Source: Octopus vulgaris
Taxonomy: Eukaryota
Assembly (NCBI GenBank): GCA_951406725.2
Contig: OX597818.1
Coordinates: 3,906,001 to 3,970,000 of the forward strand
Length of the DNA: 64,000 bases
Direction of reading: 5' to 3'
The notes under the pieces were generated by a model. The model saw only the letters and a list, made by a program, of their open reading frames with translations, was not told the origin of the DNA and did no database searches. Made by a program: the position numbers and the translations under genes. Shown in pieces: positions 5,001-60,741 of this stretch; the first letter of the stretch is position 1, and every line of letters begins with the position of its first letter.

Positions 5001-5407
5001 GTGTGTGTGCATGCACGTGTGTGTGAGAGAAAGAGTGAGTGAGTGAAGGTGTGTGTCATGATAATTGATATCGTTGAAAGTACACACATATAGAAAATGT
5101 GACGTCATCGTTGTATAAAATGTTTACGGTAGTTGATTTATGGAAAACATTCTAATGTTAAATTTTTGAAATGCAAATATGTGAAGGACAATGAAGTGTA
5201 ATTTGTAGCTGAAATAGTACTGAATCTTTTGATCCCCCATACGTCAAAATTAGTAACTTGGTTTTGGAATGCATATATATAGGGCAGACTTCTTTCGAAT
5301 TTGAAGTAAGGCATGTGTAAAATTTGGTGAAATTCGGTTGAAAATTGTAGGAGTAGAAGTGGTTCACACAACACACAGACAGACAACTTGCTTTTTAATT
5401 TATATGA
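2092..5407 (-). mobile_element. Internally deleted Helitron carrying a RepHel N-terminal remnant (2437-2865)
   Basis: Minus strand starts TC(ATATAAATT) at 5407 and ends with a hairpin plus CTAG at 2095-2092, between A and T; ORF has CRFCRALKF..E..TCCSG and FLNSIRQYNSAF, typical of Helitron Rep N-termini. Confidence 0.8.
3605..4721 (+). mobile_element. Non-autonomous piggyBac element nested in the Helitron
   Basis: TTAA on both sides; TIRs CCCTTTCGTTAC / GTAATGAAAGGG; ends homologous to 49935-50984; internal ~180-bp direct duplication at ~3920-4200. Confidence 0.9.
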
Positions 5408-5410
5408 TAT

Positions 5411-6826
5411 ATTGTTACGAAAATTTAACCTTTTAAGGCTACTTTCAAGCCTTCGCCATAACTTGATTTATCTTTCTATCTCTCTCTCTACAAAATTTAA
5501 CCTTAGGCTAGGCTACCTCAAGCCGTAATCCCATCTCTTCCCATCTCTTCCCATCTTTCAGCCATTGGCGGTCTTTTTTCCTCCTCTTACCATTACGATT
5601 CTACAATTTAAATTCCCAATTCAACTAACTTACTTCTTCAATTTCAACTCCCGATCGATGTCCGCAGCAAGTTCTTTAAAAATTTATCTTAATATTTCTA
5701 TTCGTTGTTACTACGTTTATTCATACATTGTTACGAAAATTTAACCTTTTAAGGCTACTTTCAAGCCTTCGCCATAACTTGATTTATCTTTCTATCTCTC
5801 TCTCTACAAAATTTAACCTTAGGCTAGGCTACCTCAAGCCGTAATCCCATCTCTTCCCATCTCTTCCCATCTTTCAGCCATTGGCGGTCTTTTTTCCTCC
5901 TCTTACCATTACGATTCTACAATTTAAATTCCCAATTCAACTAACTTACTTCTTCAATTTCAACTCCCGATCGATGTCCGCAGCAAGTTCTTTAAAAATT
6001 TATCTTAATATTTCTATTCGTTGTTACTACGTTTATTCATACATTGTTACGAAAATTTAACCTTTTAAGGCTACTTTCAAGCCTTCGCCATAACTTGATT
6101 TATCTTTCTATCTCTCTCTCTACAAAATTTAACCTTAGGCTAGGCTACCTCAAGCCGTAATCCCATCTCTTCCCATCTCTTCCCATCTTTCAGCCATTGG
6201 CGGTCTTTTTTCCTCCTCTTACCATTACGATTCTACAATTTAAATTCCCAATTCAACTAACTTACTTCTTCAATTTCAACTCCCGATCGATGTCCGCAGC
6301 AAGTTCTTTAAAAATTTATCTTAATATTTCTATTCGTTGTTACTACGTTTATTCATACATTGTTACGAAAATTTAACCTTTTAAGGCTACTTTCAAGCCT
6401 TCGCCATAACTTGATTTATCTTTCTATCTCTCTCTCTACAAAATTTAACCTTAGGCTAGGCTACCTCAAGCCGTAATCCCATCTCTTCCCATCTCTTCCC
6501 ATCTTTCAGCCATTGGCGGTCTTTTTTCCTCCTCTTACCATTACGATTCTACAATTTAAATTCCCAATTCAACTAACTTACTTCTTCAATTTCAACTCCC
6601 GATCGATGTCCGCAGCAAGTTCTTTAAAAATTTATCTTAATATTTCTATTCGTTGTTACTACGTTTATTCATACATTGTTACGAAAATTTAACCTTTTAA
6701 GGCTACTTTCAAGCCTTCGCCATAACTTGATTTATCTTTCTATCTCTCTCTCTACAAAATTTAACCTTAGGCTAGGCTACCTCAAGCCGTAATCCCATCT
6801 CTTCCCATCTTTCAGCCATTGGCGGT
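5411..6826 (+). repeat. Tandem array of a 316-bp monomer (4 full copies plus about half), forming the 5' end of an RTE-derived element
   Basis: attgttacgaaaattt recurs at 5411, 5727, 6043, 6359 and 6675; homologous to the 364-bp array at 25224-26803 (minus). Confidence 0.95.
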
Positions 6827-7801
6827 GCGCCCGCCCCCCCACCCCCACCACCAATACCGATGAACACTGTTCTCACCCCCACCACCAATACCGGTGAACA
6901 CTGTTCTCACCGCCAACACCACCAATACTGGTGAACACTGTTCCTCACCCCCCACCACCAATACCAGTATACCCTGTCCTCACCATCTACACCGGATACG
7001 CCTTACTCATCTACACCGGGTACGCCCTACTCCCTCCTCCTCCCCCACTACCCCTTCTCCTCATATGCTTTCACTGTGAAAAGACACGCTGCTAGCGCCA
7101 TAGCTCATCAACTGCCCACCGATCTTACGCTTCCTCCTGACACTGCTTCATTCCGACTATCCCCCTTTAGCACCCTCCCGCCTCGTAATATCCTACGTTT
7201 TTATTTCTTAGGAACCTACACCAACCCTTCCTGCCATCGTTCCTCCTTACCCCAACCTTCCCCACTGGTTGCTCCCCTATATTACCCACCTCAACTGGAC
7301 CCCCCCTCCCCAACTCAACTCTAGAATATCTGTATTCTTTCCTCTACCTAATAACGTTACTCAGTGACGATAACGAATGTCTTTATTTCTTAGGAACCTA
7401 CACCAACCCTTCCTTACTCAGTGACGATAAATGCTGTGACTACAAAGACCCGGGCTGCTTTCTGCAGCAATTCCACATACCCCCTACTCATTCTAAGTAC
7501 CCCGGATCCCCAAAGTACCCTGGATCCCCAAAGTACCCCGGACCTCGTTGCCCCCGTGCCGCTGACACGTTAAAATGCTCGAACCGATCGTGACGATGCC
7601 GGACCCTCCGGCCCCTGTGCAGGTGGCACGTAAAAAGCACCCAATCCACTCACGGAGTGGTTGGCGTTAGGAAGGGCATCCAGCCGTAGAAACTCTGCCA
7701 GATTCAGACTGGAGCCTGGTGCGGCCCCTGGCTTCCCAGACCCGGTCAAACCGTCCAACCCGTGCTAGCGCGGAAAGCGGACGTTAAACGATGATGATGA
7801 T
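5411..7801 (+). mobile_element. ORF-less, internally deleted (5'+3' bipartite) derivative of the RTE LINE at 21117-26803
   Basis: 6827-7381 matches the 5' UTR at 25223-24646 (minus); 7431-7801 matches the ORF end, 3' UTR and (GAT)n tail at 21502-21117 (minus); EN and RT coding regions are absent. Confidence 0.92.
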
Positions 7802-8597: not shown

Positions 8598-8599
<2 letters not shown>

Positions 8600-9326
8600 C
8601 AATAATAATTCTCTAAATGAGATATAGACAGTAACTGCTCCATAACATAAGGGACTAAAGCCATCTGAATATGGCTAGGGACAGGGCAGGGTGGTGGGGG
8701 TGTTACTGTTGCATTTAGCCCCAGGCGAACATCAACGTCGCCAGATAGGCTTGACACCATCACGGCGTCCTCTATCCTGCAAAGGGAGATAATTCCCCGA
8801 TGAAGCGGAAACCACACACGGACCTAGGTTTCAAGGTGTTTGCCTATTATCAACGTATGGTAGGCTCCGCTTCCTCGACGAACAACTCACTCTGCAGGAT
8901 ATTTATATATAGATTTTCAAGCAAAATACATTTGCTGATTTCGAAAATCTGTTCGACAGCAATAATAATTCTCTAAATGAGATATAGACAGTAACTGCTC
9001 CATAACATAAGGGACTAAAGCCATCTGAATATGGCTAGGGACAGGGCAGGGTGGTGGGGGTGTTACTGTTGCATTTAGCCCTAGGCGAACATCAACGTCG
9101 CCAGATAGGCTTGACACCATCACGGCGTCCTCTATCCTGCAAAGGGAGATAATTCCCCGATGAAGCAGAAACCACACACGGACCTAGGTTTCAAGGTGTT
9201 TGCCTATTATCAACGTATGGTAGGCACCGCTTCCTCGACGAACAACTCACTCTGCAGGATATTTATATACGTTGATAATAGGCAAACACCTTGAAACCTA
9301 TCTCCGTGTGTGGTTTCCGCTTCATA
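8598..9326. repeat. Direct duplication with 360-bp period plus a ~58-bp inverted partial copy
   Basis: agcaataataattctctaaatgag at 8598 and 8958; 9268-9326 is the reverse complement of atgaagcggaaacc...tatcaacgta. Confidence 0.9.
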
Positions 9327-16224: not shown

Positions 16225-18815
16225 TTAGTGAGAGCTATGCGAGCCATGTACAGGGACACTGCTAGTAAGGTGAGGGTTGGCAATGAGTACAGTGAAGAAT
16301 TCCGGGTAGAGGTAGGGGTCCACCAAGGTTCAGTCCTCAGCCCCCTCCTATTTATCATAGTCCTCCAGGCAATAACGGAGGAATTCAAGACAGGATGCCC
16401 CTGGGAGCTCCTCTATGCTGATGACCTTGCTCTAATTGCTGAGTCACTATCAGAACTGGAGGAGAAATTTCAGGTGTGGAAGCAAGGATTAGAATCGAAG
16501 GGTCTTAGAGTCAACCTAGCTAAACCCAAAGTCCTAATAAGTAGGAAGGTAGACAAATCACAAACGCCTTCAGGTAGATGGCCCTGCTCGATCTGTAGAA
16601 AAGGCGTAGGTAGAAACTCTATAAGATGCACCAAGTGTAAGCTATGGACACATAAGAGGTGCAGCAAAGTCAAAGGAAGGCTAACTAGGAAAATAGTTTT
16701 TGTATGTGGCAGATGCTCAGGAGCAATAAACTCTGAAAATGTGCAGAGACCAACTTCCACCACATTCCAGGGAGAAAAACTAGAAATAGTTGATAGCTTC
16801 CATTACCTAGGTGACCAAGTCAGTAGCGGGGGTGGGTGTGCTGAAAGTGTAACTGCTAGAGTAAGAATAGCCTGGGCAAAGTTCAGAGAGCTCTTACCCT
16901 TGCTGGTGACAAAAGGCCTCTCGCTCAGAGTAAAAGGCAGACTGTATGATGTATGTGTACGAACAGCCATGCTACATGGTAGTGAATCATGGGCCGTGAC
17001 TGCTGAGGATATGCGTAAACTTGCAAGAAATGAAGCCATATGCTCCAATGGATGTGTAATGCCAGTGTTCGTACTCGACAGAGTGTAAGTACCTTGAGAG
17101 AAAAGTTGGACCTAAGAAGCATCAGTTGTGGCGTGCAAGAGAGACGTTTGCGCTGGTATGGTCATGTGACAAGAATGGATGAAGATAGTTGTGTGAAAAA
17201 GTGCCACACCCTAGCAGTTGAGGGAACCTGTGGAAGAGGTAGACCCAGGAAAACCTGGGACGAGGTGGTGAAGCACAACCTTCGAACTTTAGGTCTCACC
17301 AAGGAAATGACTAGAGACCAAGACCTATGGAAGTATGCTGTGCGTGAGAAGACCCGGCAGGACAAATGAGACCTTAACCCATGGCCTCTACCTGGGATGT
17401 AGCCTGTCCACTTATGCATACCTTTCCTTCTTGGGACACAAAACTCTACTTGAGAAGACCTGTTGAGGCAAGTGAGAATCAGAATCAAATTCAAAATTGA
17501 TCAACATCAATGGAAATTGTAGCTGTGATACCAGTGCTAGTAGCACGTAAGCAAACCATCCGAACGTGGCCGTTGCCAGCGCCGCCCCGACGGGCCTCTG
17601 TGCCGGTGACACGCAAAAAGCACCATCTGATCGTGGCCGTTGCCAGACTTGCCTGGCCCCTGTGCCGGTGGCACGTAAAGAGCACCATCCGACCATGGCC
17701 GTTTGCCAGCCCCGTCTGGCACCTGTGCCGGTGGCATGTAAAAAGCACCCACTACACTCACGGAGTGGTTGGCGTTAGGAAGGGCATCCAGCCGTAGAAA
17801 CATTGCCAGATCAGACTGGGCCTGGTGCAGCCTTCTGGCCTCCCAGACCCCAGTTGAACCGTCCAACTCATGCTAGCATGGAAAGCAGACACTAAATGAT
17901 GATGATGATACATATATCATCATCATCATTTAGTGTCAACAACATTCCTATGTATCTATGTATCAACAGTGAACTCCTCAGGAAGTATACTCTTTCTGAC
18001 AACTTCCAAGAGTGCCAAAACAGCCAGACTAAAATACTTCAAAGAAGAGCTGGATGTGAAATGCTCAGCATACCAAAAGAGAATACATGGGTATGTTTCC
18101 AAAGACTTTAAAATGACATTAATATTGATATGAAGTGCAGCCTTTCTTGGAGTCATGACCATTATGTCACATCACACTTCAAAGACGACATGTTTGCAAT
18201 TCAAAACCAAGAGATTGCTACCAAATACCTAATAAAAAGAAAAGAAGCCCTTAGTGCCCCAAGATGGAACCAAAAATATTGATGATACCACATTTCTGTA
18301 AATGACATCATGCATGATAGCTGCCCCAAAATGCCATCAAGGTACTACTTCCCAATGTGACATCATGTTGTCACTGAAACAATATACAATATCCCCTGAC
18401 AAAAGCTCCTGAAATAAATATAGAGAATCCCATTGTTATTGGATACATTCATAAACATCAACAAAGAGAATATGGCTAAACATTCTCTATCAAAACTTCT
18501 ACTAAATGCAAACATAACAGACCAGATGTTGTTTTGAACAGACAAGGAGAAGTATGAACCATAACAGAGGTCAGCTGCTCTGCTAATGGGAATATCTCTT
18601 TGAAAATCCAAGAGAAAGAGGATAACTATGGACAACTGCTTTGAAACGTCGAACTTCGATACTCAGATTATAAATTCATGAGTAAATGCCTAGGTGATAA
18701 TGTAGATAAGTTAGAGTTTTCAGAAAAAGAAATCAGTCAATTAACTCACACATTTGAAATACTATTTGTAAGTAGAACAGTAAAAATATACAAGACTTTT
18801 TGCAAGTTCAAAATG
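15300..18815 (+). mobile_element. Decayed R2/R4-like (RLE-type) non-LTR retrotransposon, split by a TA tract and an RTE insertion (pieces ~15300-15990 and ~17935-18815)
   Basis: Degenerate RT motifs (FFMDELK, FSADMEMEIG.KKC, IDENLSYD, HNTFA.PVL) colinear with the copies at 19480-21095 and 32480-34800; many stops. Confidence 0.6.
16222..17909 (+). mobile_element. 5'-truncated RTE-clade LINE with a well-preserved RT half, inserted in (TA)n
   Basis: ORF 16228-17088 has GVHQGSVLSPLLF, LLYADDL, a C4HC3 finger and FHYLG; one frameshift near 17039; (GAT)n tail. Confidence 0.95.
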
Positions 18816-21095: not shown

Positions 21096-21350
21096 ACTAC
21101 TCATATATATATATATCATCATCATCGTTTAACGTCCGCTTTCCGCGCTAGCACGGGTTGGACGGTTTGACCGGGTCTGGGAAGCCAGGGGCCGCTCCAG
21201 GCTCCAGTCTGAATCTGGCAGAGTTTCTACGGCTGGATGCCCTTCCTAACGCCAACCACTCCGTGAGTGGATTGGGTGCTTTTTACGTGCCACCTGCACA
21301 GGGGCCGGAGGGTCCGGCATCGTCACGATCGGTTCGAGCATTTTAACGTG

Positions 21351-24300
21351 TCAGCGGCATGGGGGCAACGAGGTCCGGGGTACTTTGGGGATCGGGGTAC
21401 TTTGGGGATCCAGGGTACTTTGGGGATCCGGGGTACTTAGAATGGGTAGGGGGTATGTGGAATTACTGCAGAAAGCAGCCCGGGTCTTTGTAGTCACAGC
21501 ATATCTCCAGAGATCTCGGTCCTTCGCCATTGCCTCAGTGAGGCCCAATGCTCTGAGGTCATGCTTGACCACCTCATCCCATGTCTTCCTGGGTCTACCT
21601 CTCCCCCTGATACCTTCAACTGTTTGGGAGTGGCACTTCTTCACACATCTCTCTTCATCCATCCGCAGCACATGACCATACCATCGCAAGCGTCGCTCTT
21701 GCACACCACATCTGATGCTTCTTATATCCAGCATTTCTCTCAGGATACTTACACTCTGTTTTGCGTGCACACTGACACTACACATCCAGCGGATCATGCT
21801 AGCTTCATTTCTTTCAAGTCTACGCATGTCTTCTGCAGTCACAGCCCATGTTTCATTACCGTGAAGCATGGCAGTTCGCACACATGCATCATACAATCTA
21901 CCTTTTGCTCTGAGGGAGAGACCTTTTGTTGCCAGTAGGGGTAGGAGCTTTCTGAACTTTGCCCAGGCTATTCGTATTCTAGTGGTGATACTCTCTGTGC
22001 ATCCACCTCCGCTACTAACTTGGTCTCCCAGGTAGCGGAAACTATCAACTACTTCTAGTTTCTCTCCCTGGAGTGTGATGGAATCTGTTTTCTGAGTGTC
22101 TGTTGTGTCTATTGTCCCTGTGCATCTGCCGCACATGAAAGCTATCTTATCTGTTAATTTCCCTTTAATGTTGCTGCACCTCTTATGTGTCCATAACTTA
22201 CATTGAGTGCATCTTATGGAGTTTCTACCTGTACCTTTCCTACAGGTTGAGCAGGGCCACCTACCCGAGGGGATGTGTGCTGAGTACCTCTTGCTGCTTA
22301 CTAATACTTTGGTCTTTGCTACATTTATTCTAAGGCCCTTTGATTCCAACCCTTGCTTCCACACCCGAAATTTCTCTTCTAGTTCCGGTAGTGATTCTGC
22401 TATGAGAGCTAGGTCATCGGCATAGAGGAGCTCCCAGGGGCATCCCGTTTTGAATTCCTCTGTTATTGCCTGAAGGACTATGATGAATAAAAGGGGACTG
22501 AGGGCTGAGCCCTGGTGCACACCTACTTCTACTCGGAATTCTTCACTATATTCGTTGCCAATCCTAACCTTGCTGACAGCCTCTCTGTATAGAGCCTATA
22601 CAGCCCTTATTAGCCATTCTTCAATCTCCAGTTTCCGCATCGACCACCAGATAAGGGAACGGGGAACCCTGTCAAAGGCTTTCTCCAAGTCTACAAAAGC
22701 TATGTAGAGGGGTTTATCTTTAGCTAGGTACTTCTCCTGCAGTTGTCGGACCAGGAATATAGCATCAGTGGTGCTTCTACCTGGTACAAAACCGAACTGC
22801 ATTTCATCTAAACAAATTCTCTCCCTAATGAGATTGGTTATGACCTTCTCTGAGACCTTCATCACCTGGTCCAACAGTTTGATACCTCTGTAGTTATTTC
22901 TATCTAGAGCATCACCCTTACCCTTGTAGCAGTTGACTATGGTGCTGCTGCACCAGTCATTGGGTATGGCTCCATTGTGAACTACCTGGTTTACAATGCG
23001 GGTGACTATGGCATGGCCCACATAGCCAGCTGTTTTAAGCATCTCAGCAGTGATTCCTGATAGGCCAGGGGCTTTGCCTGGTTTCATATCCTTAATTGCC
23101 TTATCTACAAGGGAGCTGTCTATTCGGGTAGCTGGTCCCTCTACTGGGTCAACATTTGGCAGGCTCTCCTCCTCCCATTCATTCTCCTCATTCAGCAGTT
23201 TTTCATAATGGCTTCTCCAAGCCTCTTTCTTTTCACTAGTAGTAAAAGCAAGTGCCCCATCATCCATGCGGACACATTTCTCTCCTATAACATCGCTATT
23301 TTCTCTGACACACTGTCTGGCAATCCGAAATACTTCAGCTCTTTGATCCTCGCGACGCTGGACATTGGCAAACTTCTTCTTTTCTGCTACATCTTTGGCA
23401 ATGTATACCTGCCGCCCAGCCTCCCTTTTGGCTATCTGGTACAGTTCCCTGCTGCCCCCATCCTTCCAGGCTTTCCAGGCCCGTCTCTTTTCACAGATGG
23501 CTTCATCTACTGCACTATTCCACCACCACGTAATTCTAGGTCTGGAAGGGACTTTGCACCTTCCACAAACTTGGTCTGTGGCACTCAACAAGCTGTCCCG
23601 TAGGAATTCCCAGCTACCTTCTATGTCTGACGTCTGAAGCTCCTCTTCCCTCTCATCAAATTTCTTGATGAGTATGTCCCTAAATTTCTGACCATGCGAA
23701 GGGTTCTTTAGCCTCCAAATCCTTCTTTTCTGGATTGGTTTGTTTCTTGGAGTCCTTCTGGCCTCAAGCTTAAAGTCACTGATGATTAGTCTATGCTGAG
23801 GGATACATTCTTCACCCGGGAGGGTCTTTGTATTCAAGAGCAACCCTGCATCCCGTTGTCTGGTGAGGATGAAGTCTATTTGGCTAGCGGAGTCTCCTGA
23901 CTGATAAGTTATAAGGTGGCAGACTGGCTTCTTGAAGTTAGTGTTGCAGATTGAAAGGTTACATGCATCACAGAATTCCAGCAGTCTAGTTCCCTCATCA
24001 TTTCTGGTGCCAATACCATAGCCACCATGTACCCCAGTGAAGATACCCGATTCCCGCCCAACATGCCCATTAAATCTCCACCTACAAAGATGAGGTCCTT
24101 GTTACTAGTCTTTGAAGTAGCCTGCAGAAGGGTATCATAAAAGTTGTCCTTCTGATCATTTGGTAGTCCCGCTTGTGGGGCATAGGCTGAGATAATCATA
24201 GCTGTGCCACTCTGTAGGACCAACCTGAGCTTAAGCACTCTATCACAAACCCTGACAACCTCTATGACCTTATCCACCCATTCCTCCGCAAGGAGAATGC

Positions 24301-24651
24301 CTACACCCCCTACACCTTCCGCGTTACCTTGCCAGTAGAGTTTGTACCTAAGTGCCTTGCCCGTGAGGACCCTAGCCGAAGCATCTCTCCATCTTACCTC
24401 TTGTATGCAGCATACATCAACCTGTCTTCTCTCTAGCATCTCTACAATCTCACTAGACTTGCCTGTCAATGTACCGACATTGATAGTGCCAACTCTGAAA
24501 ACTGGGAAGGAGATGTGGGGGGGACGGGGGGATTCGGCGCCTGAGAAGAGGAGGGTTGTAGTGGTGGTGATAGTTTTCGTGGTATTTTTCTTTTGATCTC
24601 TCTTCCAACCTGACCACGCCGTGGGCAGGAGCTGGTGTTAGCAGTGGACAT
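21351..24651 (-). pseudogene. RTE endonuclease/reverse transcriptase ORF, disrupted
   Basis: Track ORFs 24466-24651, 23909-24469, 22596-23843 and 21351-22520 join through frameshifts near 24520 and 24070 and one stop at 22596-22598. Confidence 0.9.
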
Positions 24652-25223
24652 TCGTTATCGTCACTGAGTAACGTAATTAGGTAGAGGAAAGAAATACAGA
24701 TATTCTAGAGTTGAGTTGGGGAGGGGGGTCCAGTTGAGGCGGGTAATATAGGGGAGCAACCAGTGGGGAAGGTTGGGGTAAGGAGGAACGATGGCCGAAG
24801 GGTTGGTGTAGGTTCCTAAGAAATAAAAACGTAGGATATTACGAGGCGGGAGGGTACTAAAAGGGGATGGTCGGATTGAGGCAGTGTCAGGAGGAAGCGT
24901 AAGATCGGTGGGCAGTTGATGAGCTATGGCGCTAGCAGCTTGTCTTTTCACAGTGAAAGCATATGAGGAGAAGGGGTAGTGGGGGGAGGAGGAGGGAGTA
25001 GGGCGTATCCGGTGTAGATGAGTAGGGCGTATCCGGTGTAGATGGTGAGAACAGGGTATACTGGTATTGGTGGTGGGGGTGAGAACAGTGTTCACCGGTA
25101 TTGGTGGTGGCGGTGAGAACAGTGTTCACCGGTATTGGTGGTGAGAACAGTGTTCACCGGTATTGGTGGTGGGGGTGAGAACAGTGTTCATCGGTATTGG
25201 TGGTGGGGGGGGGGGGCGATCGC

Positions 25224-26803
25224 ACCGCCAATGGCGGAAAGATGGGAAAAGATGGGATTACGGCTTGAGGTAGCCTAAGGTTAAATTTCGTAGAGAGAGA
25301 GAGATAGGAAAGATAAATCAAGTTATGGTGAAGGCTTGAAAGTAGCCTAAAAGGTTAAATTTTCGTAAATTTTCGATGGGTAAGACGAATCAAGTTATCA
25401 ATGTATGAATAAACGTAGTAACAACGAATAAAAATAGTAAGATAAATTTTTTAAGAACTTGCTGCGGGCATCGACCGGGAGTTGAAATTGAAGAAGAAAG
25501 TAAGTTGAATTGGGAATTTAAATTGCAGAATCGTAATGGTAATGGCGATTTTCAAGTTTTAGCATAAGAAGAAGAAGAGGAGGAAAGACCGCCAATGGCG
25601 GAAAGATGGGAAAAGATGGGATTACAGCTTGAGGTAGCCTAAGGTTAAATTTCGTAGAGAGAGAGAGATAGGAAAGATAAATCAAGTTATGGCGAAGGCT
25701 TGAAAGTAGCCTAAAAGGTTAAATTTTCGTAAATTTTCGATGGGTAAGACGAATCAAGTTATCAATGTATGAATAAACGTAGTAACAACGAATAAAAATA
25801 GTAAGATAAATTTTTTAAGAACTTGCTGCGGGCATCGACCGGGAGTTGAAATTGAAGAAGAAAGTAAGTTGAATTGGGAATTTAAATTGCAGAATCGTAA
25901 TGGTAATGGCGATTTTCAAGTTTTAGCATAAGAAGAAGAAGAGGAGGAAAGACCGCCAATGGCGGAAAGATGGGAAAAGATGGGATTACGGCTTGAGGTA
26001 GCCTAAGGTTAAATTTCGTGAGAGAGAGAGATAGGAAAGATAAATCAAGTTATGGCGAAGGCTTGAAAGTAGCCTAAAAGGTTAAATTTTCGTAAATTTT
26101 CGATGGGTAAGACGAATCAAGTTATCAATGTATGAATAAACGTAGTAACAACGAATAAAAATAGTACGATAAATTTTTTAAGAACTTGCTGCGGGCATCG
26201 ACCGGGAGTTGAAATTGAAGAAGAAAGTAAGTTGAATTGGGAATTTAAATTGCAGAATCGTAATGGTAATGGCGATTTTCAAGTTTTAGCATAAGAAGAA
26301 GAAGAGGAGGAAAGACCGCCAATGGCGGAAAGATGGGAAAAGATGGGATTACGGCTTGAGGTAGCCTAAGGTTAAATTTCGTAGAGAGAGAGAGATAGGA
26401 AAGATAAATCAAGTTATGGCGAAGGCTTGAAAGTAGCCTAAAAGGTTAAATTTTCGTAAATTTTCGATGGGTAAGACGAATCAAGTTATCAATGTATGAA
26501 TAAACGTAGTAACAACGAATAAAAATAGTAAGATAAATTTTTTAAGAACTTGCTGTGGGCATCGACCGGGAGTTGAAATTGAAGAAGAAAGTAAGTTGAA
26601 TTGGGAATTTAAATTGCAGAATCGTAATGGTAATGGCGATTTTCAAGTTTTAGCATAAGAAGAAGAAGAGGAGGAAAGACCGCCAATGGCGGAAAGATGG
26701 GAAAAGATGGGATTACGGCTTGAGGTAGCCTAAGGTTAAATTTCGTAGAGAGAGAGAGATAGGAAAGATAAATCAAGTTATGGCGAAGGCTTGAAAGTAG
26801 CCT
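25224..26803 (-). repeat. Tandem array of a 364-bp monomer (4 full copies plus about one third), forming the LINE 5' end
   Basis: accgccaatggcggaaagatggg recurs at 25224, 25588, 25952, 26315 and 26679. Confidence 0.95.
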
Positions 26804-27388
26804 ATATATATATATATATATATATACGAGCAAAATATATGGATGGTGCTGAGTTGTCAAACATTTAAACCAAATTTTCTCAAAACAACTTGTTCAACCA
26901 TCCCATAGCCTCCCCTTTGAGAAACACTGATTTAATCTAAATTTGAGACACCAGCAAAAGAAGAAATAAAGATAGACTTTTTTCTATTCCAAAGAAAAAC
27001 GATTTTATTCACACAAATATGCAACCGAAGAGTTTAAAGTACCAGTAAATGATAAGGCTGTTGACTGGGAGAACACAAACATGGTTTAAACAGTAAGCTT
27101 TGCAAGAAAGAAATGTGCCTTTAAGCAGTACAAAAACAACAAAAATAGAAGGTGCAGTTATGTACAGGTTGACGGAAGAAAAGCAAGACAAAAACAATGC
27201 ATGCAAATGGGTTAGCTGGAGGCAAATCTAGATGGAAAAGGATGATGAATTTATGAAAACGTACCTGGGACAATAATAAGTTTATCCAATAAAACATATA
27301 GGAAATCAACTTGGGGTGATTTTTTATGAAAAGCAACAACCTAAGGAACTAAGTAACTAATTTTAAGTTAACTTATTTTACGGGATGT

Positions 27389-34829: not shown

Positions 34830-37721
34830 GAAACCAAAACAAAAATATGCTCTGTGGAAATCAGCAGCTTCCTAAATGCCAATTTGGTAAGAAAAATACA
34901 GGAGTGGACCATTGATAAGGCGTACTCAAGATACACTTTCAGCTTTATATCTCTTGTTATTAGGGCAGCAGGATAACAAAAGACAAGGAGGTACTCATTA
35001 TGGGAGGGGACTTCAATGGACATGTTGGAAGACACCCCAATGAATTTCAGAGTGTTGGCTCCAAAAATGAGAAGGGGACAAGGCTGCTGGGGTCTTGTGA
35101 TGCTCATGACATATTAGTCTGCAACACCTACTTCAGGAAACCTGCCAACCATCTGATCACTTACCAATCTGGTGGGCACACCAGCTAAATCAACTACATT
35201 CCCAAGAGACACAGGAACAAGTGTATGCTAGTAAATGCAAAATCTTTCCTGGAGGAAGAATGTACAGTGCAGCATAGGGTAGTGATTAGTGACTTCATAC
35301 TTAGAGCCAGAAGGATGCAGTGACACAAACCAATATAGAAAAGGAGGTTGTGGAAGCTCAAGGATCCTCCAAATGGGCAGAGATTTAGAGATGTTCTTAA
35401 TAAAGCTTTTGATGAGAAGGAGGAAGAGATAGAGATATAAGATGTAGAAGACAACTGGAAGTTCCTATGAGACAATCGACTGAGGGTGACAGACCAAATC
35501 TGTGGTGGGAGCAAAGCTTCTTCCAGACCAGGGTGACATGGTAGTAGAACAGTGATGTTGATAGGGCCACAAAAGAGAAGAGATGGGTCTGGAAAGAATG
35601 GAAAAGAGTGGGTAGCAGAAATCATTTCAAGAAGCTAAAAGGGAAGTGAGACGTCAGCTTACCTAGTTAACATAAAAGCGGAAAGGAAGAGGTTTGCCAA
35701 TGCCCTACAACTTGAAGATCAGAGACATGGGGTGTTCCAGATTGTGAGTCAGTGTGTCAGAGAGAATCAGGATATTGTGGGAGAGAAGTGTATATGCATG
35801 AATAATGGTATGTTTGCACTTAGAATTCAGACAAGAAAAAAGTGTGGAAGAGTTACTATGCAAGGCTATTGAATGTTGAGAATGAATGGGATAAAAGGAG
35901 TCTCCCTCATGTGAACTAAACTGAGGGACCAGCTATCTTAGTGGACAGCAGTATGGTAGGTAAGGCAATTAAAGATATAATAACAAAGAAGAACCCTGGT
36001 CCATCTGGAGTCACTGCTGAGATACTCCAAATATCTGGCAAGGTAGGATACGGAATAGTTACCTGCATATTGTTAGCTGCTACAAGGGTAAGGAAAATGC
36101 CTTAGCTAGAAGCATTTATAGAGGTATCAAACTTCTGGACCAGGTAATGAAAATTACAAAGAGAGTTACAGCACAATTAATTAGAAACAGAGTTAAGCTA
36201 AATGAAATGCAGTTTGGTTTTGCCCTGGGGAAAAGCACTACTGATGCTATTTTCATTGCCAAGCAATTGCAAGAGAAATACTTAGCCAAGAATAAACCAT
36301 TACACTTGGCATTTGTTGATCTAGAGAAAGTCTTTGACAGAGTTCCCCACTGTGTGATATGGTGGGCTCTGAGGAGGCCAGGAATGGATGAGTAGCTTGT
36401 GAAAGCTGTACAGCCTATTTTTAGGGGCACTGTCAGTAAGGTGAGAATTAACCACAAGTAATGTGAAGAATTTGATGTACAGGTAGGGATTCATCAAGGC
36501 TCAGTCCTCAGTCCCCTATTTTTCATCATTGTCCTCTAGGTCATAACAAAGGAATTCAAGATTGATGGCTCCTGGTCACAACTATATGCTGACAGTCTTG
36601 CCCTCCTAGCAGATTCTGTATCATTGCTAGAAAAGAAATTCCACATGTGGAAGCAAAACCTGGAATCTAAAGGACTTAAGATTAACTTAGCAAAGACTAA
36701 GGTCTTATTAAAGATGAAAACTAACAGGATCCTACCCACTTCAGATAAAGTGGCCCAGCTTGATTAGTAGGAAAGGTGTAGGTAGGAATTTCATATGGTC
36801 TACCCAGTGTAAGCTATGGACACACAACAGGTGCAGTGGAATAATAGGAAGGCTATCAGCAAAAGTAGTGTTCCTATGTGGAAGATTCACAAGAGACAAA
36901 AATATTTTTGCTACCTAGGGGACGACATTAGTAGTCAGGGTGGCTATACAAAGTGTGTAATAGTTAGAATAAGAATAGGGTGGAGAAAATTCAGAGAGCT
37001 TTTACTTCTGTTGGCAACCAAAGGTTTCTCTCTCTGAATGAATGGAAAATTGTATGATACATACATATGAATAGAAATTCTATATGGTAGTAAGACATGG
37101 GCCCTGAATGCAAAGGTCATGTGAAGGCTAGAGAGAAATGAGGCTAGTGTGCTCTGCAGGATGTGTAATGCAAGTGTACACATGTGACAGAGTGTTAGTG
37201 TATTGAGAGAGAAGTTAGGAATAAGAGGAATTAGATGCAGTGGGCAAGAGAGAAGACAGTGTTAGTTTGGTCATATGATGTGAATGGATGCTGATGGCTC
37301 CAAAAAGAAGTGCCAATCTCTGAAAGTGGATAGAATTTGTGGAAGAGGGAGACCCAGGAAGACATGGGACAAAATACTGAAGGATTGACTTCAGAACGCT
37401 GAACCTTTTGGATGAGCAGACCAAGAACCAAAACACTTGGTGTTTTGTTGTACTCAAGAAGATCTGTCTTCCATAGAAGAAGTGTTAAGGCTACATCTCC
37501 TGGTGAAAAGTTTTGTGTCAGAGTCACATATAAAGCACGCTGGTGGCACATTTAAAGCACCCAGCACACACTATGAAATGGTTGGTGTTAGGAAGGGCAT
37601 CCAACCATAGAAACCAAGCCAAATCAGACTGGAACCTGGTGCAGCTTCTTAGCTCCAGTCAAATCGTCCAGCTCATGCCAGCATGGATGGAAAAACAGAC
37701 ATTAAAGGATGATGATGATGA
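34830..37721 (+). mobile_element. Old decayed RTE-clade LINE (EN, RT, 3' UTR, GAT tail)
   Basis: GGDFNGHVG, CNTYFRKP, QFGFALGKSTTDAIF, FVDLEKVFDRVP, decayed PHD remnant, ggaagggcatcca motif, gatgatgatg. Confidence 0.9.
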
Positions 37722-37879
37722 CATATATAACATAGATATTATATATATATATATACTATGTTGCAGTGTATATTTTTTTATTTCGATTTCAACTTTTAAT
37801 GCTGCTATTACTGTGTCCTCTAATGGTTCATTGTATTTAGGTATCAATCCGCATGTCACAGTTTTTACGATGGTAGAAA

Positions 37880-40800
37880 TTCCATCTTAAAGTCATAATT
37901 TAGCAGGATTGTACCCCAGCGCAGCAATTGGTTGGCTGTATATGTGGGGATACTCTTTCACGATCCATAAATTGACAACAATGGGCAGTGATCTGTTTGC
38001 AGACTAAATTTCCTTCCATGTATAAATTTGTGAAATTTTTTCACTGCAAAAATAATGGCTAATGCCTTCTTAATTTGGCTGTAGTTTTTCAGCTGCCATC
38101 AATGAACATGAAGCATGAGCGATGGGTTTTACACTACTTTCATACTTGTGTAAAATTATCGCTTCTATACCACTTTCTCTGGCATCTGATGCTACTACTA
38201 TTGTTAAATTTGGATCAAAGTGCGTTAATGACATTTCCGATGTTAACACATTTTTGTTTCTTCAAGCGCTTTTTGGCACCTGTCCAACCAATACCATTTA
38301 ACGTCTTTTTTCAATAGGTTATTTAGGGGTGCTCTTAGCTCATGCATTTTCAGTATATATGTTTGGTAATAGTTTGCAAGCCCCAATAATGCTTGTAATG
38401 TAATATTTTTCAGGGTAGGCATATTTTTTATTGCAGTTGATCTTGAAGGATCTGGCCTGTGACCATTTTTATCGATAACTTGCACTAGATACTTTATTTC
38501 TGGCATGAAAAATTTGCATTTTCCCTCGCTAACTTTAAATCCATACTCCTTTATTCTTGCAAAGACATTTTTAACATGTTCCTCATGCTGGCCTCGAAAC
38601 TCACTTTTTATGGGTATGTCATCCAAGTAAGCTATAGCGAAATCCGTATCTACAAGCATAGTGTCCAGCACGTGTTGGAAAATACTAGGTGCAACCTTTA
38701 TCCCAAAAAGAAGTTGATTGAATTTATATAAACCTTTATGGGTGTTTATTGTTAAGAATTTTGAACATTCCTCCTCGACTTGTAAATGTAAATATGCCTC
38801 CAACAAATCCAACTTTGAAAAAAAATTTTCCTCCACTGAGTTTTGCAAAAATTTCCTCTGGACCTGGTAATGGGTAATTGTATGTCAACTCAACAAACAT
38901 TCGTTCAAGCCTGTTGAAAAGTCAGTACATACTCGTATTTTCTTTTCTTTGCATCAACAGTTGGTGATGCGCATTCTAAATAATCAAATTTTTCTATAAC
39001 TCCAAGCTTTTCAAGTCTATCCAATTCCTCGTTGACTTGATTCAGTGCCATGAAAGGTACAGCTTGCTTTGGCTTAAATACCGGCACAGTGTTTTCTTTC
39101 ATTTGAAATTTTATTTTTGTCTTGGTGCACCTACCTAATTATTCAGAAAAAACATCAGGAAAAATCTTTTCCAATTTCTTTTTTAAATCCTCCAATGCCT
39201 TATTTGAACTAGCATTAAGAACCGTTTACATTATAGCAAAAAATATTTATGGGGAGGTCCCCTAAATTAAATAGTTCCATCTAGTCTGTGCCAAATAGGT
39301 TTGTCATATTTTTTAATACAAAAACTTTGGCTTTCAAAGTTTTTCCATAATATGTCACCTCACTTATCATTTCGTCCAAAAATTGCAATTGTTTCCCTGA
39401 AATACCACACGTGATTTAAAAAAATTTTTTCAATGTAGGCTTTCCAATTTTTCTCCATGTATCATCATTAATTATCATGATATCACTACCTGTGTCCAAC
39501 TGTAGTCTCATATTCACATTATTTATTTTTATGGAGATGAATATTCTTTTTTTTTCTGCCTCATTTTGCATTTGTGTTGACAATACTTTTTCCGTCAAAT
39601 TTTTTCGTTCGACCTTTTTTATTTCACCCAATAATGTGAATTCTTATGTCTGATTTTTCCACATCCAAAACATTTAAAATTTTTAAAAGGACAGTTTCTT
39701 TTAAAATGTATTTCTCCACACCCAAAGCATGGTTTGGGTTTTGACTATTGTTTTTTTCTTTTTTCTTATCTGTTACAGGTTGACACATATATATATTTGA
39801 ATAATCTTTTCCAATTTTTTCTGCATCCTGTTATAAATTTATAATGCTTTGGCATTCTTCAGCTACTGTAGAGTTAGTTTCAAATTGGCTATACTAAATT
39901 CTGCTTTTTCCTGTGCTCATGTAATTTCAGAGCAAGAGCTGAACATTATGTATGCAAGGATTGGGCGATCCAAGATGAAATTGAGTAAGGTAAACACAAC
40001 ATCATACACAAACCACTTGTGAAAAGTGGTAGAATTTTTTTACCACTTTTGCATATCAAACTTGGTTTGTTTAAGCAATTTGTGAAAGCCTTGGACGAGG
40101 AATCCTCCGCATTTGAATATCTTGCAGAAAAGTTCCCTTCCCTAAGTCAAGCTAAAATTAAAGAAGGTTTCTTCGTAGGTCCCCAAATTCAAAAAATTAT
40201 ACTTGATGAAACCTTCATCACACATCTCAAGAGAAAAGAGAAACTTGCATTTGAGTCATTCAAGAAAGTTTGTGATAACTTCCTGGGCAACCATCGTTCA
40301 GAAGACTATGTGCAAACTGTGAATGATCTGCTGAGTCATTACCATGATATGGGATGTAACATGTCTCTAAAAGTTCATGTGCTTCACTCTCATTTGGATT
40401 TTTTGCGGAAAATCTTGGTGATGTGAGTGATGAACATGGCGAAAGGTTCTATCAGGATATTTCAGTGATGGAGTGACGATTCAAAAGAAAATGGGACCCT
40501 GGCATGTTGGCAGACTACTGCTGGGGTATAAAAAACAGAAAACCACACCCCGCACAAGAGGCTTAGAGGGACAAAAGTTGTTTAAACTGACAGGTGTGTT
40601 TTTAATTCATAACCAATATATGTTTTGTTATACCAACTAAATTTTTGTTTTGTTTTTTGTAACTTTCAGTATTTGCAATAATGTGTTCAATACGCAATAT
40701 TATACAGTATATTATAAAACATATGGTTCATGGTACAGGAAAACGGTACCTAATCTAGAGAAATAAAGGTCAGAATCAGAATCAGGAGAATTTTTTGACC

Positions 40801-46432: not shown

Positions 46433-47935
46433 GAGCCTGCCCATCCCGCCCTCCCCCACCTATACTGGATGTCTTTATCCTCTGACCTCTATGGGATGTC
46501 TTTCCCCTGAACACCTCCAATGACTTAAATGCTACCCCATCTCTACTTAGTGTTTATCTCAAATGGAGTGTAGTGATTATGTAGCACATGAAATGATGGT
46601 GTAGTGCATGCAGGTTGAAGGCTATTCTATGTTTATGAGTTCTACCAAATCCGAGCTTTCATTTCAGATACATGCTGCTGCTGTCTCTCATCCCAGGATC
46701 TCGTAGGCCCATGCTTTCCACACCTTCAGAGTTGGCACATTGAAAGGTAGGTCTGGTGAGATTGTTGAGACACTTGAATGGAGATGTGTAGATTTGTGCT
46801 GCATCCAAGAAGTAAGGTAGAGAAGGCATTCTGCTAGGTTCCTCACAGGCAAAGAACATAGGTATAAGATTTTCTGGGTAGGGAACACTGATGGGGTGGG
46901 AGGCATGGGTATACTTCTTGTGAAGAAATGGATTGATATGGTAATCGAGGTAGTCAGAGTCTGTGATAGAATACTTAAGCTTAGATTAGTGATGCAACAT
47001 GGATTAGCAACCATTATCTCAGCTTATGCCCCTCATCCAGGGCTATCTGATGAACAGAAAGACCGATTTTATGATACCCTCTTGCAGACTACCTCATCAA
47101 TGAATGACAGGGACCTTCTCATTGTGGATGGCAACTTCAATGGGCATGTTGGACAATAAGCAGGGAGCTCCCACGGTGTACATGGTGGCTATATATTTGG
47201 TTCCCGCAATGCAGAGGGAACCAGGCTGCTGGAGTTCTGTGATGCAAATGATCTTATGGTCTGTAATACTAACTTCAGGAAACCTGCCAGTCACCTGTTC
47301 ACCAACCAGGCTGGTGGACACATTAGTCAGATTCACTACATTCTCACCAGGAAACAGGAAAGATGGCTACTTATAAATGCCAAAACCTTCTCAGGTGAAG
47401 AATGCACCCCACAACATAGGTTAGTAGTCAGTGACTTGAGAATCAGGGCTAAATGGATGCCCAGAAGATGACCAGCATGGAAAAGAAGGGTCTGGGAGCT
47501 TAAGGATCCTCTGAATGGACAGACATTTAGAGACATATTACTCAAAACTTTTCACAAAAAAGGAGGATATAGCATCATATAATGTGGAAGACAACTGGCG
47601 GTTCCTATGTGACAACCTGTTGAGGGCTAATGACCAGATCTGTGGATGGTGCAAAGTCCCCTCCCAACCTAAGGTAAATGTGGTGGTGGAACAATATAGT
47701 TGACAAGGCCATTAGGGAAAAGAAACAGGCATGGAAGGACTGGAAGAATGGTGATAGCAGGGAACTGTATCATATCATCAGAAGGGAAGCTAGGAGATAT
47801 GTTTACATAGCTAGAGGAGAAGCAAATAAGAAAAAAATTGCCAATGTTCTGCATCATGAGGACCAAAGATTTAAAGTGTTTTGTGTTGCAAGACAGTGTG
47901 TCAGAGAGAATCATAATGTCATAGGAGAGAAATAT
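46433..47935 (+). mobile_element. RTE-clade LINE 5' half (5' UTR, endonuclease, linker), decayed
   Basis: FRVGTLKGRSGEIVE..VDLCCIQEVR, ISAYAPH, GNFNGHVG, CNTNFRKP, WWWNNIVDKAIREKK. Confidence 0.9.
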
Positions 47936-49008
47936 GTAGACAAGACAAGTATAAGAATTGGATCAGAGTTAGAATTGGAGTTTGTGGTGGAAGTTGGTGT
48001 GCATCAGGGATCTGTGTTGTCACCATTGTTGTTTGCAACAGAGGTTGATGTGGTGATGGAGAGTGCAAGAAGGGATTGATAATGGAGATACTGTATGTGG
48101 ATGACCTTGTTCTGATGAGTGAGATGATGGAGGGATTGAGGGAGAAGTTTTGGAAATGGAAGTAAGGGTTTGAAGGTAAACCTCAGGAAGACAAAGGTGA
48201 TAGTGAGCGAATGGAAGAAGTGTTAGTGTGTAAGGTGGATCCATGTGGTGTATGTTGGAGGAGTGTAATGGCAAATATGGTGTTGCGTATGAGATGTGAG
48301 AAATGGATTCATGGTAGATGTGCGAAAATGAAGAAGGTGACCCCCAGACTGGTGAGAGAGTTTGTTTCTGGAAGATGTAAGAAAGGAGCTGGAGGGCTGG
48401 TGGAACCAATGGAAACACTATGTGATGAGGTGGAAATAGTGAGAGGGTTTTGTTATTTGGGAGATAGAGTGGATATAAGTGGTGGATGTGAAGCAGCTGT
48501 GACAGCAAGAGTGAGATGTGGCTGGGTGAAGTTCAGGAAGGGTCTATAAGAGTTGTGTGAGAGCTGTTGCAATGTTGTATGGGAATGAGACATGGTATCT
48601 GAAGGAGAGAGAGATGGTAATTTTGAGGACTAAGAGAGCAATGGTGAGAGAAATGTGTGGGGTGAAGCTGTTTGATAAGAGGAGGACTGAGGATTTGATG
48701 GAAATGCTAGGGTTGAAGGAATCAGTAGAATGGTTGGCAAGGTCAAATGGAGAGAGGTGGTATGGGCATATGTTGAGGAGGGATGAAGAGCATGTTCTGA
48801 GGAGGGTGATTGTGTTTGAGGAAAATTGAGCACAAAAGCAAGGTAGACTGAGGAAAAGGTGGAGGAGGAGATTGGGAGGGTTGGTTTGAAAAAAGGAGGA
48901 TGCCCAAAACCTGACGAGATGGTATGAGGGCGGTTGCTATGACATCAAGGTAGATCTGGTCACTCCCGTTAATGGGGACAAAACTTGGATTTAAAACACT
49001 GGATGATG
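47936..49008 (+). mobile_element. 3' half of a different RTE family (RT C-terminal part with decayed PHD, distinct short 3' UTR)
   Basis: GVHQGSVLSPLLF, ILYVDDL, CGVCWRSV..RCEKWIHGRC..GRC, FCYLG, RWYGHMLR; ends cactggatgatga. Confidence 0.85.
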
Positions 49009-58953: not shown

Positions 58954-60151
58954 TCTATAAGATGCACCAAGTGTAAGCTATGGACACGTAAGAGGTGCAG
59001 CAATGTCAAAGGAAGGCTAACTAGGAAAATAGTCTTTGTTTGTGGCAGATGCTCTGGAGCAATAAACACTGAAAATGTGCAGAGACCAAGTTCTACCACA
59101 TTCCAGGGAGAAAAACTAGAAGTAGTTGATAGCTTCCGTTACCTAGGTGACCAAGTGGGTGTGCTGAAAGTGTAACTGCTAGAGTAAGAATAGCTTGGGC
59201 AAAGTTCAGAGAGCTCTTACCCCTGCTGGTGACAAAAGGCCTCTCGCTCAGAGTAAAAGGCAGACTGTATGATGCATGTGTATGAACAGCCATGCTACAT
59301 GGTGGTGAAACATGGGCCGTGACTGCTGAGGATATGCGTAAGCTCGCAAGAAATGAAGCCAGTATGCTCCAATGGATGTGTAATGTCAGTGTTCATACTC
59401 GACAGAGTGTAAGTACCTTGAGAGAAAAGTTGGACCTAGGAAGCATCAGTTGTGGTGTGCAAGAGAGACGTTTGCGCTGGTATGGTCATGTGACGAGAAT
59501 GGATGAAGATACTTGTGTGAAAAAGTGCCACACCCTAGCGGTTGAGGGAACCTGTGGAAGAGGTAGACCCAGGAAAACCTGGGACGAGGTGGTGAAGCAC
59601 AACCTTTGAACTTTAGGTCTCACCAAGGAAATGACTAGAGACCGAGACCTATGGAAGTATGCTGTGCGTGAGAAGACCCAGCAGGACAAGTGAGACTATA
59701 ACCCATGGCCTCTACCTGGGATGTAGCCAGTCGACTTATGCATACCTTTCCTTCTTGGGACACAAAACTCCACTTGTGAAGACCTGTTGAGGCAAATGGA
59801 AATCAGAACCAAAATCGAAGTCGATCAACATCAATGGAAATTGCAGCTGTGATACCAGTGCCGGTGGCACATAAAAACACCATCCGATCGTGGCCGTTGC
59901 CAGCCTCGCCTGGCCCCCGTGCCCGTGGCACGTAAAAAGCACTATCCGACCGTGGCCGTTTGCCAGCCCCGTCTGGCACGTAAAAAGCACCCACTACACT
60001 CATGGAGTGGTTGGCGTTAGGAAGGGCATCCAGCTGTAGAAACATTGCCAGACCAGACTGGGCCTGGTGCAGCCTTCTGGCTTCCCAGACCCCAGTTGAA
60101 CCGTCCAACCCATGCTAGCATGGAAAGCGGACGCTAAATGATGATGATGAT
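58954..60151 (+). mobile_element. 5'-truncated RTE-clade LINE, same subfamily as 16222-17909
   Basis: Starts within the PHD (CTKCKLWT); MLHGGETW, RRLRWYGHV; 3' UTR repeats and (GAT)n tail. Confidence 0.94.
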
Positions 60152-60741
60152 ATCCTAGAGTATTCATTCCTGAGAGAAGTGGAAAGAATAAATTCTGGTA
60201 TGAGAAAGATAGATAGATAAATAGATCAGGGCATTGTAGTGGATATATACTAAGCAGTATAATGGGAGGTATTTTTATCTTGGGAAATTAGAGGGAGTGC
60301 AAAGGGCTAGTAAACTGGTATTCCCAGCAAAATAAGTTGGAGATGGAGTGGCGGAGGCAAATGTAAAGACCACAGATAAGGGAGAAAATAAACAAGGCAG
60401 ATGCCAGACCCACAGGGCTGGGCATCAATGAGAGGTGAGTGGGTTTGTAGGTAATAAAGTGAACATAAGGAAGATAAAGAAAAGACAAGTGTATAGTGTG
60501 TAGTCAAATCTTACTAGGGTGGAGATGTAGCGTTGTCTACCCACTAAGATAAGCTAAATGTCAACTAGTAAAGAAAAGATTTAAGATTTGTGGTATAAAA
60601 CAGTTAAGATATGTTATAAAACTAAAATAAAGACAGATAACTAAAGAAAATAAATAAAGATAATTAAAAAATAAATTAAAGTTAAAATAAAGTTAACACT
60701 TAAAATCAACTTTAGGTTAAAATCATAAAATTAAAAATTAA

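Follow-up and report, generated by a model that had tools for sequence, protein, structure and literature searches.

The tandem array with which a young RTE family of Octopus vulgaris begins is an integral part of the family's own 5' end, a conclusion that leaves hardly any room for doubt. It draws on the window, that is, the whole stretch of 64,000 nucleotides analysed here (GenBank assembly GCA_951406725.2, contig OX597818.1, positions 3,906,001 to 3,970,000), and on genome-wide searches, whose loci are labelled L. In the explanation that we consider best, although on an evenly balanced judgement, the array is the 5' leader of autonomous and ORF-less copies alike, likely acts as a promoter and, when the element inserts or shortly afterwards, likely regrows in a burst.

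Element A is a 4.1-kb APE-RT LINE with a (GAT)n tail at 21115, inserted in (TA)n (Table 1); the (TA)n run is found past the tail too (~21102-21114) and flanks the element at both ends. It encodes APE, RT and a weak PHD, and its APE-RT ORF is open over ~1095 aa in sister copies. TRF reported 4.3 x 364 bp at 25224-26804 (36% GC, CpG o/e 1.55, 2-3 differences in each pair of units) and, in element B, 4.5 x 316 bp at 5399-6810, where the 306-bp proximal unit departs from the 316-bp units by one 10-bp indel. Both arrays end at CCATTGGCGGT, immediately before GCG and the same C-rich UTR. Units A and B are distinguished by blocks of 31, 30, 5 and 10 nt and by ~5% substitutions (13/250). The original prediction had announced these unit lengths and copy numbers, the near-identity of the units within an array (the three 316-bp units of B are identical), the common joining point and the block indels, and was right in each case. 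It had also called the element that begins at 5411-6826 a sister of element A, which holds for the homologous array and the shared junction but not for the body, of ~974 bp and without ORF. Element B is an ORF-less derivative belonging to a very young subfamily.

Table 1. Features of elements A and B in the window.
Feature	Position	Strand	Remarks
Array B of element B	5411-6826	+	one partial unit; three identical units of 316 bp; proximal unit of 306 bp
Element B body	6827-7800	+	~974 bp; 5' UTR joined to 3' end, whole ORF absent
3' UTR and (GAT)n tail	21115-21350	-	
Single APE + RT (+ PHD-like finger) ORF	21351-24637	-	one frameshift near 24.08 kb, one stop at 22596-22598
uORF, 61 codons	24466-24651	-	ATG at 24651; overlaps main-frame start
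Unique C-rich 5' UTR (tether)	24652-25223	-	internal repeats of 34 bp (25044-25209) and 24 bp (24996-25044)
Array A of element A	25224-26804	-	126-bp partial unit (26679-26804) and 4 units
Units of array A	m4 26315-26678; m3 25952-26314; m2 25588-25951; m1 25224-25587	-	364, 363, 364 and 364 bp
(TA)n target at 5' junction	26805-26827	.	array begins with TA microhomology

The non-repetitive part of the tether is nearly invariant between both clades of full-length copies. The uORF (61-65 codons) supplies the only ATG before the endonuclease; in 25 full-length copies its frame relative to the APE-RT ORF is set by the length of the C-tract and coincides with it in only five, and a control by frameshift or re-initiation is possible. 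At L151 (C12:71.593 Mb) an 18-bp UTR motif is present at ~8 copies, a second and smaller unstable repeat of the leader. The PHD-like finger (window ~22120-22260, minus strand) falls in the C-terminal half of the RT ORF; many unnamed homologues have it too.

The window holds further repeats. Abundant short repeats with the 3' tail of the RTE, at 73-88% identity (1897-2089, 17656-17917, 37539-37729 and 59974-60153), are probably SINEs mobilised by this RTE clade. Older RTE fragments are found at 635-1428, 16249-17357, 35052-37369, 46731-47937 and 58954-59679, an unrelated near-perfect tandem of 1.9 x 360 bp follows a (TA)n run at 8598-9269, and a fragment at 38243-38884 (minus strand), its translation judged by eye, resembles the reverse transcriptase of LTR retrotransposons.

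The association between monomer and element was followed in both directions. Unit A gave 38 scored hits from 257 candidates, and all 37 loci outside the window were fetched; every one runs straight into RTE sequence, 11 of them into full-length elements, 25 into internally deleted ones and one directly into the ORF. From the searches with unit B (25 scored of 221) and with a third unit type (38 scored of 266) 20 loci each were picked among the listed hits, and 39 of these 40 adjoin an RTE body. Altogether, 76 of 77 monomer-found loci lie next to RTE sequence, 73 of them with their joint on one common UTR junction or no more than a few bases away; the lone exception, L102, is an array without a body at a perfect 257-bp local duplication. 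Conversely, at least 25 bp of monomer stands upstream in 38 of 40 UTR-found copies (40 scored of 598 candidates), and an array in 36 of 40 found with the B-specific junction (40 scored of 1080), the other four being truncated within the UTR. Trees of the monomer and of the ORF from 23 full-length copies gave the same two clades (support 100/99-100) with matching subclades. The frame is uninterrupted over the compared stretch in 14 of these 23 copies, which indicates that the family is young.

Duplications resembling TSDs, of 26, 29 and 22 bp, enclose array plus body at L054, L129 and L152. The TSD filter was passed by 7 of 95 candidates, most targets being uninformative (TA)n, against 1.6 expected and a maximum of 6 in 200 shuffled pairings. 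Further information comes from L034 (C27:15.915 Mb), where a 5' inversion consists of nothing but monomer and its two breakpoints are separated by ~20 nt in the monomer register. This inversion fits twin priming with a ~20-nt gap, which implies an RNA template of at least four monomers. L115 (C17:58.385 Mb) has a second, less informative, monomer-only 5' inversion. Head-to-tail monomer joints were present in contigs of all eight public runs inspected, under three organism labels (a shorter unit in X18), so the tandem arrangement is not an artefact of this assembly.

A free satellite, with RTE elements landing by chance in or beside it, or an error of assembly would be the obvious alternative, and we rate it as the most improbable of all. 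It could appeal to the bodiless array of L102, to a 119-unit array on C2 whose distal ~70 units seem mis-joined, to two large runs in which the contig depth, when summed, is tens of times as high on the monomer as on the UTR (this depth is not a copy number), and to the scored hits being a minority of the search candidates. It is opposed by dozens of dispersed loci that share one junction and one polarity, by the congruent trees and TSDs, by the joints in the eight runs and by the duplication that accompanies L102, and is refuted for the sampled loci. The array was found 5' of the RTE at the sampled loci, in tandem in all the runs and with the layout foreseen in the original prediction, namely that of mouse L1, with monomers followed by a unique tether.

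The array also accompanies copies devoid of ORF. Internal deletion has given at least five independent classes that went on to amplify (L031-L067, L098-L179), with body joints near 457/3872, 453/3804, 498/3737 and 569/3722 and that of the B type. The array directly adjoins the 3' UTR in L106, the ORF in L066 and the middle of the UTR in L125, and L106 consists of little beyond ~21 monomers and a 300-bp tail.

The differences among the 23 full-length copies amounted to 2.7% in the monomer, 0.8% in the unique UTR and 0.6% in both the ORF and the 3' UTR; between the two clades they were 3.6-5.5% in monomers and 2.4-2.9% at four-fold ORF sites. Monomer divergence is ~4.6 times that of the ORF and only ~1.5 times that of four-fold sites, which indicates that the monomer is less constrained than the body and not dramatically fast. 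The array thus diverges faster than the body overall, in agreement with the original prediction, but its turnover as proposed there is not supported: the excess over four-fold sites is small, and no replacement by a non-homologous unit was seen in the sampled copies. The 150 listed matches of unit B, spread over many chromosomes, are 98-100% identical to it; hence the difference between A and B is one of subfamilies, and the uniformity of an array is chiefly inherited from its subfamily. Variants private to an element and present throughout its array exist but are few (L108, L114). The idea that each element homogenises its own array is not supported in its original form; homogeneity is mostly per subfamily, and single-unit variants dominate within arrays.

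Each monomer probably supplies promoter activity, a putative role to which several features point. The array lies where a promoter would be expected, the CpG o/e ratio, 0.26 in the flank and 0.35 in the ORF, reaches 1.3-1.55 in monomers, the array is kept in every bipartite subfamily sampled, and monomers with their joints are present in contigs of four runs whose RNA label is a guess. The 5' ends, pooled from 114 loci in a search-biased sample (15 loci with gaps, inversions, open ends or no array were skipped, two were unresolved and a few were mis-called after internal breaks), spread across the whole monomer, non-uniformly (KS p=5e-5), and are overrepresented at A positions ~40-160; among the 31 body-found B copies no cluster was significant (p=0.09-0.63). 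A G directly precedes the array at only 5 of the 114 loci. At 66 loci the joints have more TA microhomology than simulated ones (1.23 vs 0.84, p=0.0007), as would be typical of truncation. YY1-like words (CGCCAT/CCATCTT) are enriched in unit A (p=0.003) and not in unit B (p=0.07-0.12); neither TCT-like nor DRE-like words were enriched in the units.

Some of these observations would suit a neutral large-unit minisatellite at the 5' end, with transcription starting in the conserved tether or arising from read-through and the array serving at most as a buffer against truncation. The 5' ends lack phasing, neither TATA nor any other core motif tested was positive in both units, and the monomer diverges near or above the four-fold rate while the tether is nearly invariant, which fits the tether holding function. 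Nevertheless, an RNA started in the tether could not transmit monomers, yet 38/40 and 36/40 copies have them and L034 implies four or more in its template; the retention of CpG in the monomers and of the array in every bipartite subfamily sampled are also at odds with neutrality. We regard this possibility as unlikely. Far less probable is a rolling circle, in which a ribozyme-cut circle of monomer would be reverse-transcribed repeatedly and joined to the RTE. Animal retrozymes do have units of similar size and a burst-like homogeneity. However, no Rfam match at E<=1 was obtained in 24600-26000, neither an exact hammerhead CUGANGA nor, by a simple descriptor, an HDV-like fold was found on either strand, where divergent ribozymes could escape, the folding z-scores of the units are +0.1 to -1.3, and monomer arrays do not occur free, 76 of 77 being linked.

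Arrays range from less than one to more than 30 units of 316-370 bp, and their ends fall over the whole monomer, the two distributions that the original prediction had proposed to survey. The body-found sample of subfamily B (n=40) has a median of 2.8 units and a mean of at least 7.4, with 11 of 40 arrays of ten or more, several of these lengths being lower bounds. L143 and L156 have ~33 and ~28 units, and at L171 a ~13.6-kb array precedes a full-length element. At C2:127.450-127.489 Mb (L166/L184/L185/L188) an array was assembled as 119 units over 39 kb; its proximal ~40 units are clean and only these were counted, because the distal ~70, probably mis-joined, are noisy and of another subtype. 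A contig start or N gaps occur in or beside the arrays of L114 (C25:1-4865), L099, L150, L160, L048 and L123, whose real lengths may be greater. A telomeric role for L114 was set aside on the assumption that its start at the first base of the contig is an assembly break. Such arrays give rise to gaps in assemblies, and annotation would wrongly take them for satellite. In mouse, more than 10 intact monomers are reported at 7 of 5765 loci (PMC9022269), and arrays are described with a mean of 2.7-3.1 monomers and one case of 50 (PMC6454616).

The distribution of variants inside the arrays bears on how they grow. A census of 41 arrays of at least four units (452 units; those with three or more rare changes dropped and the STR-rich end excluded) gave 35 variant sites confined to one unit and five shared by several, a dominance that argues against ongoing homogenisation, and no rare substitution shared by two loci at a given distal index. 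Steady growth was simulated to leave 60-71% single-unit sites (P 1e-4 to 0.014) and a pure burst ~99%, both with approximate array sizes. With singleton counts that are inflated by sequencing error, and consensus calling that may erase variants in near-identical arrays, singleton density equals body-private density in 23 non-B arrays (32/33624 = 0.095% vs 35/44821 = 0.078%, p=0.46) and is five-fold lower in 14 long B arrays (12/58975 = 0.020% vs 10/9244 = 0.108%, p=3e-4). The long B arrays are therefore younger than the split of their bodies from sampled kin, and they would have been regenerated from one or two units after that divergence. The proximal, position-1 unit has 3'-end variants of its own, found in siblings on different chromosomes (287A>T and/or a missing 309 T insertion in L101, L107, L110-L114, L143 and L166). 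Two-block arrays at L055, L130, L047 and L109 reveal stepwise or later duplication, L047 has phase-shifted shared variants, and L056 and L109 show alternations.

The pattern fits a few monomers inherited via RNA followed by regrowth in a burst near insertion, and such a burst seems, on moderate confidence, to be the main mode of growth. The five multi-unit variants are more than a pure burst would leave, and the evidence favours some stepwise or later duplication at L047, L055, L109 and L130. The cycle would start with transcription initiating broadly within an upstream monomer, giving an RNA of several monomers, tether and body. The next step is shown by its footprints: the (GAT)n tail primes reverse transcription at (TA)n, and microhomology joins the product to the target at a largely arbitrary point of the array. 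Copies long enough to include the UTR therefore mostly retain some monomer. The lost length would be regained when one or two distal units are copied again in register, the template slipping or looping back in the course of insertion or repair, which would leave runs of identical units, a distinct body-proximal unit and, occasionally, tens of units. Later the arrays would be mostly static and gather single-unit mutations.

Whether the RTE insertion machinery itself writes the array, re-copying one monomer tens of times in a single insertion, is more doubtful, and we hold it as a tentative proposal only; for one insertion, 28-40 units (9-13 kb) make a long array. If true, a 1-kb parasite would be born with a 5-13 kb promoter satellite, a LINE leader would turn into satellite DNA in a single step, and the family would offer a direct view of the renewal of a monomer promoter that evolved independently of rodent L1. 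Alternatively, a monomer promoter inherited through RNA might regain its length in chromosomal DNA, by unequal exchange or replication slippage as in a VNTR, the long arrays being nascent satellites. Arrays of ~28, ~33 and at least 40 units speak for it, as do the phase shifts of L047 and the alternations of L056 and L109; recent expansion explains the low singleton density of long B arrays equally well, the distinct proximal unit could be a generic edge effect, and unequal crossing-over is the explanation preferred for the mouse case of 50 monomers (PMC6454616). On the other hand, steady growth predicts more multi-unit variants than were found, older arrays are internally as diverged as their bodies, and the longest arrays belong to the youngest subfamily instead of the oldest. 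This chromosomal route appears to us rather unlikely, and the burst near insertion continues to be preferred. With its long and near-mutation-free arrays, the very young ORF-less subfamily makes re-copying at insertion and unequal crossing-over separable.

The element is not an L1. That clade was ruled out by the single APE-RT ORF with a 61-codon uORF and the (GAT)n tail, in place of ORF1 and ORF2 with poly(A). The structure points to the RTE clade, with a single APE+RT ORF, ~3-4 kb, a microsatellite 3' tail and bipartite ORF-less derivatives, and so do the C-terminal motifs of the ORF, which we take to be those of RTE. Homologue searches returned unnamed proteins of up to ~52% identity over the full length. 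Microsatellite tails and bipartite forms are described as RTE features, the latter only in RTE, Ingi, Vingi and R2 (PMC6007223, PMC5786205).

The analogy with HeT-A/TART drawn in the original prediction did not hold, since the monomer had no match to the 3' end of the element in an element-versus-window BLAST. The octopus copies lie dispersed and singly, in (TA)n or unique DNA, whereas HeT-A/TART form head-to-tail series of whole elements; the shared idea is that of the Drosophila elements, a promoter supplied by an upstream repeat. Ogre elements of Lathyrus reportedly give rise to satellites from short internal arrays that occasionally undergo very long expansions, but the octopus array is the 5' leader of a LINE, not an internal region of an LTR element, and its long arrays stay attached. 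TRE5-A of Dictyostelium is said to have a tandem A-module. A 200-bp promoter module is described for TRE5-A (PMC3159450). RTE-2_OV, an octopus RTE LINE expressed in brain, resembles the present family in ORF size and in its ~600-nt UTR (PMC9115989). Its identity with this family was rejected, as six of its published primers do not match (five without a site within 6 mismatches, one with a site at 6), and the word 'tandem' is absent from the main text of that paper (PMC9115989). Switching of the 5' UTR is reported for tobacco SolRTE, in an account whose accessible text contains neither 'tandem' nor 'monomer' (10.1101/2022.11.04.512097). In searches of open-access text we found no RTE or cephalopod LINE with a 5' end of tandem monomers, nor a report of bipartite RTE derivatives with arrays. 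Like RTESINE1/2, MAR4_MD, WALLSI3 and Bov-A, the ORF-less octopus copies are fusions of 5' UTR and 3' end by internal deletion, amplified in trans; unlike them as described, they carry a tandem array, often several-fold longer than the ~1-kb body, and no HDV-like ribozyme was found at their 5' end (PMC5786205).

The closest resemblance is to mouse L1. Long 5' monomer arrays are presented as a special feature of mouse L1, whose mechanism of renewal 'remains unclear', and position-1 monomer subtypes are reported there too (PMC6454616); rat L1 monomers measure ~650 bp (PMC6454616, PMC9022269, PMC5381506). As in the mouse L1Md A, Tf and Gf types described in these three papers, a variable number of head-to-tail monomers occupies the extreme 5' end of the octopus element with a fixed joint to the tether, the 5'-most unit is partial, the position-1 unit is distinct, the monomer type tracks the subfamily and CpG is retained. 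In contrast to mouse L1, the octopus element has a single APE-RT ORF, a (GAT)n tail, a (TA)n target and AT-rich units of 316-370 bp, its 5' ends are not clearly clustered, as they are in type A, the arrays ride on ORF-less derivatives as well, the B subfamily attains ten or more units in 11/40 copies against 7/5765 mouse loci above 10, and the promoter role is putative. The leader works like the monomers and tether of rodent L1, yet belongs to an unrelated LINE group. A young RTE family with the layout of mouse L1 is a case of convergence.
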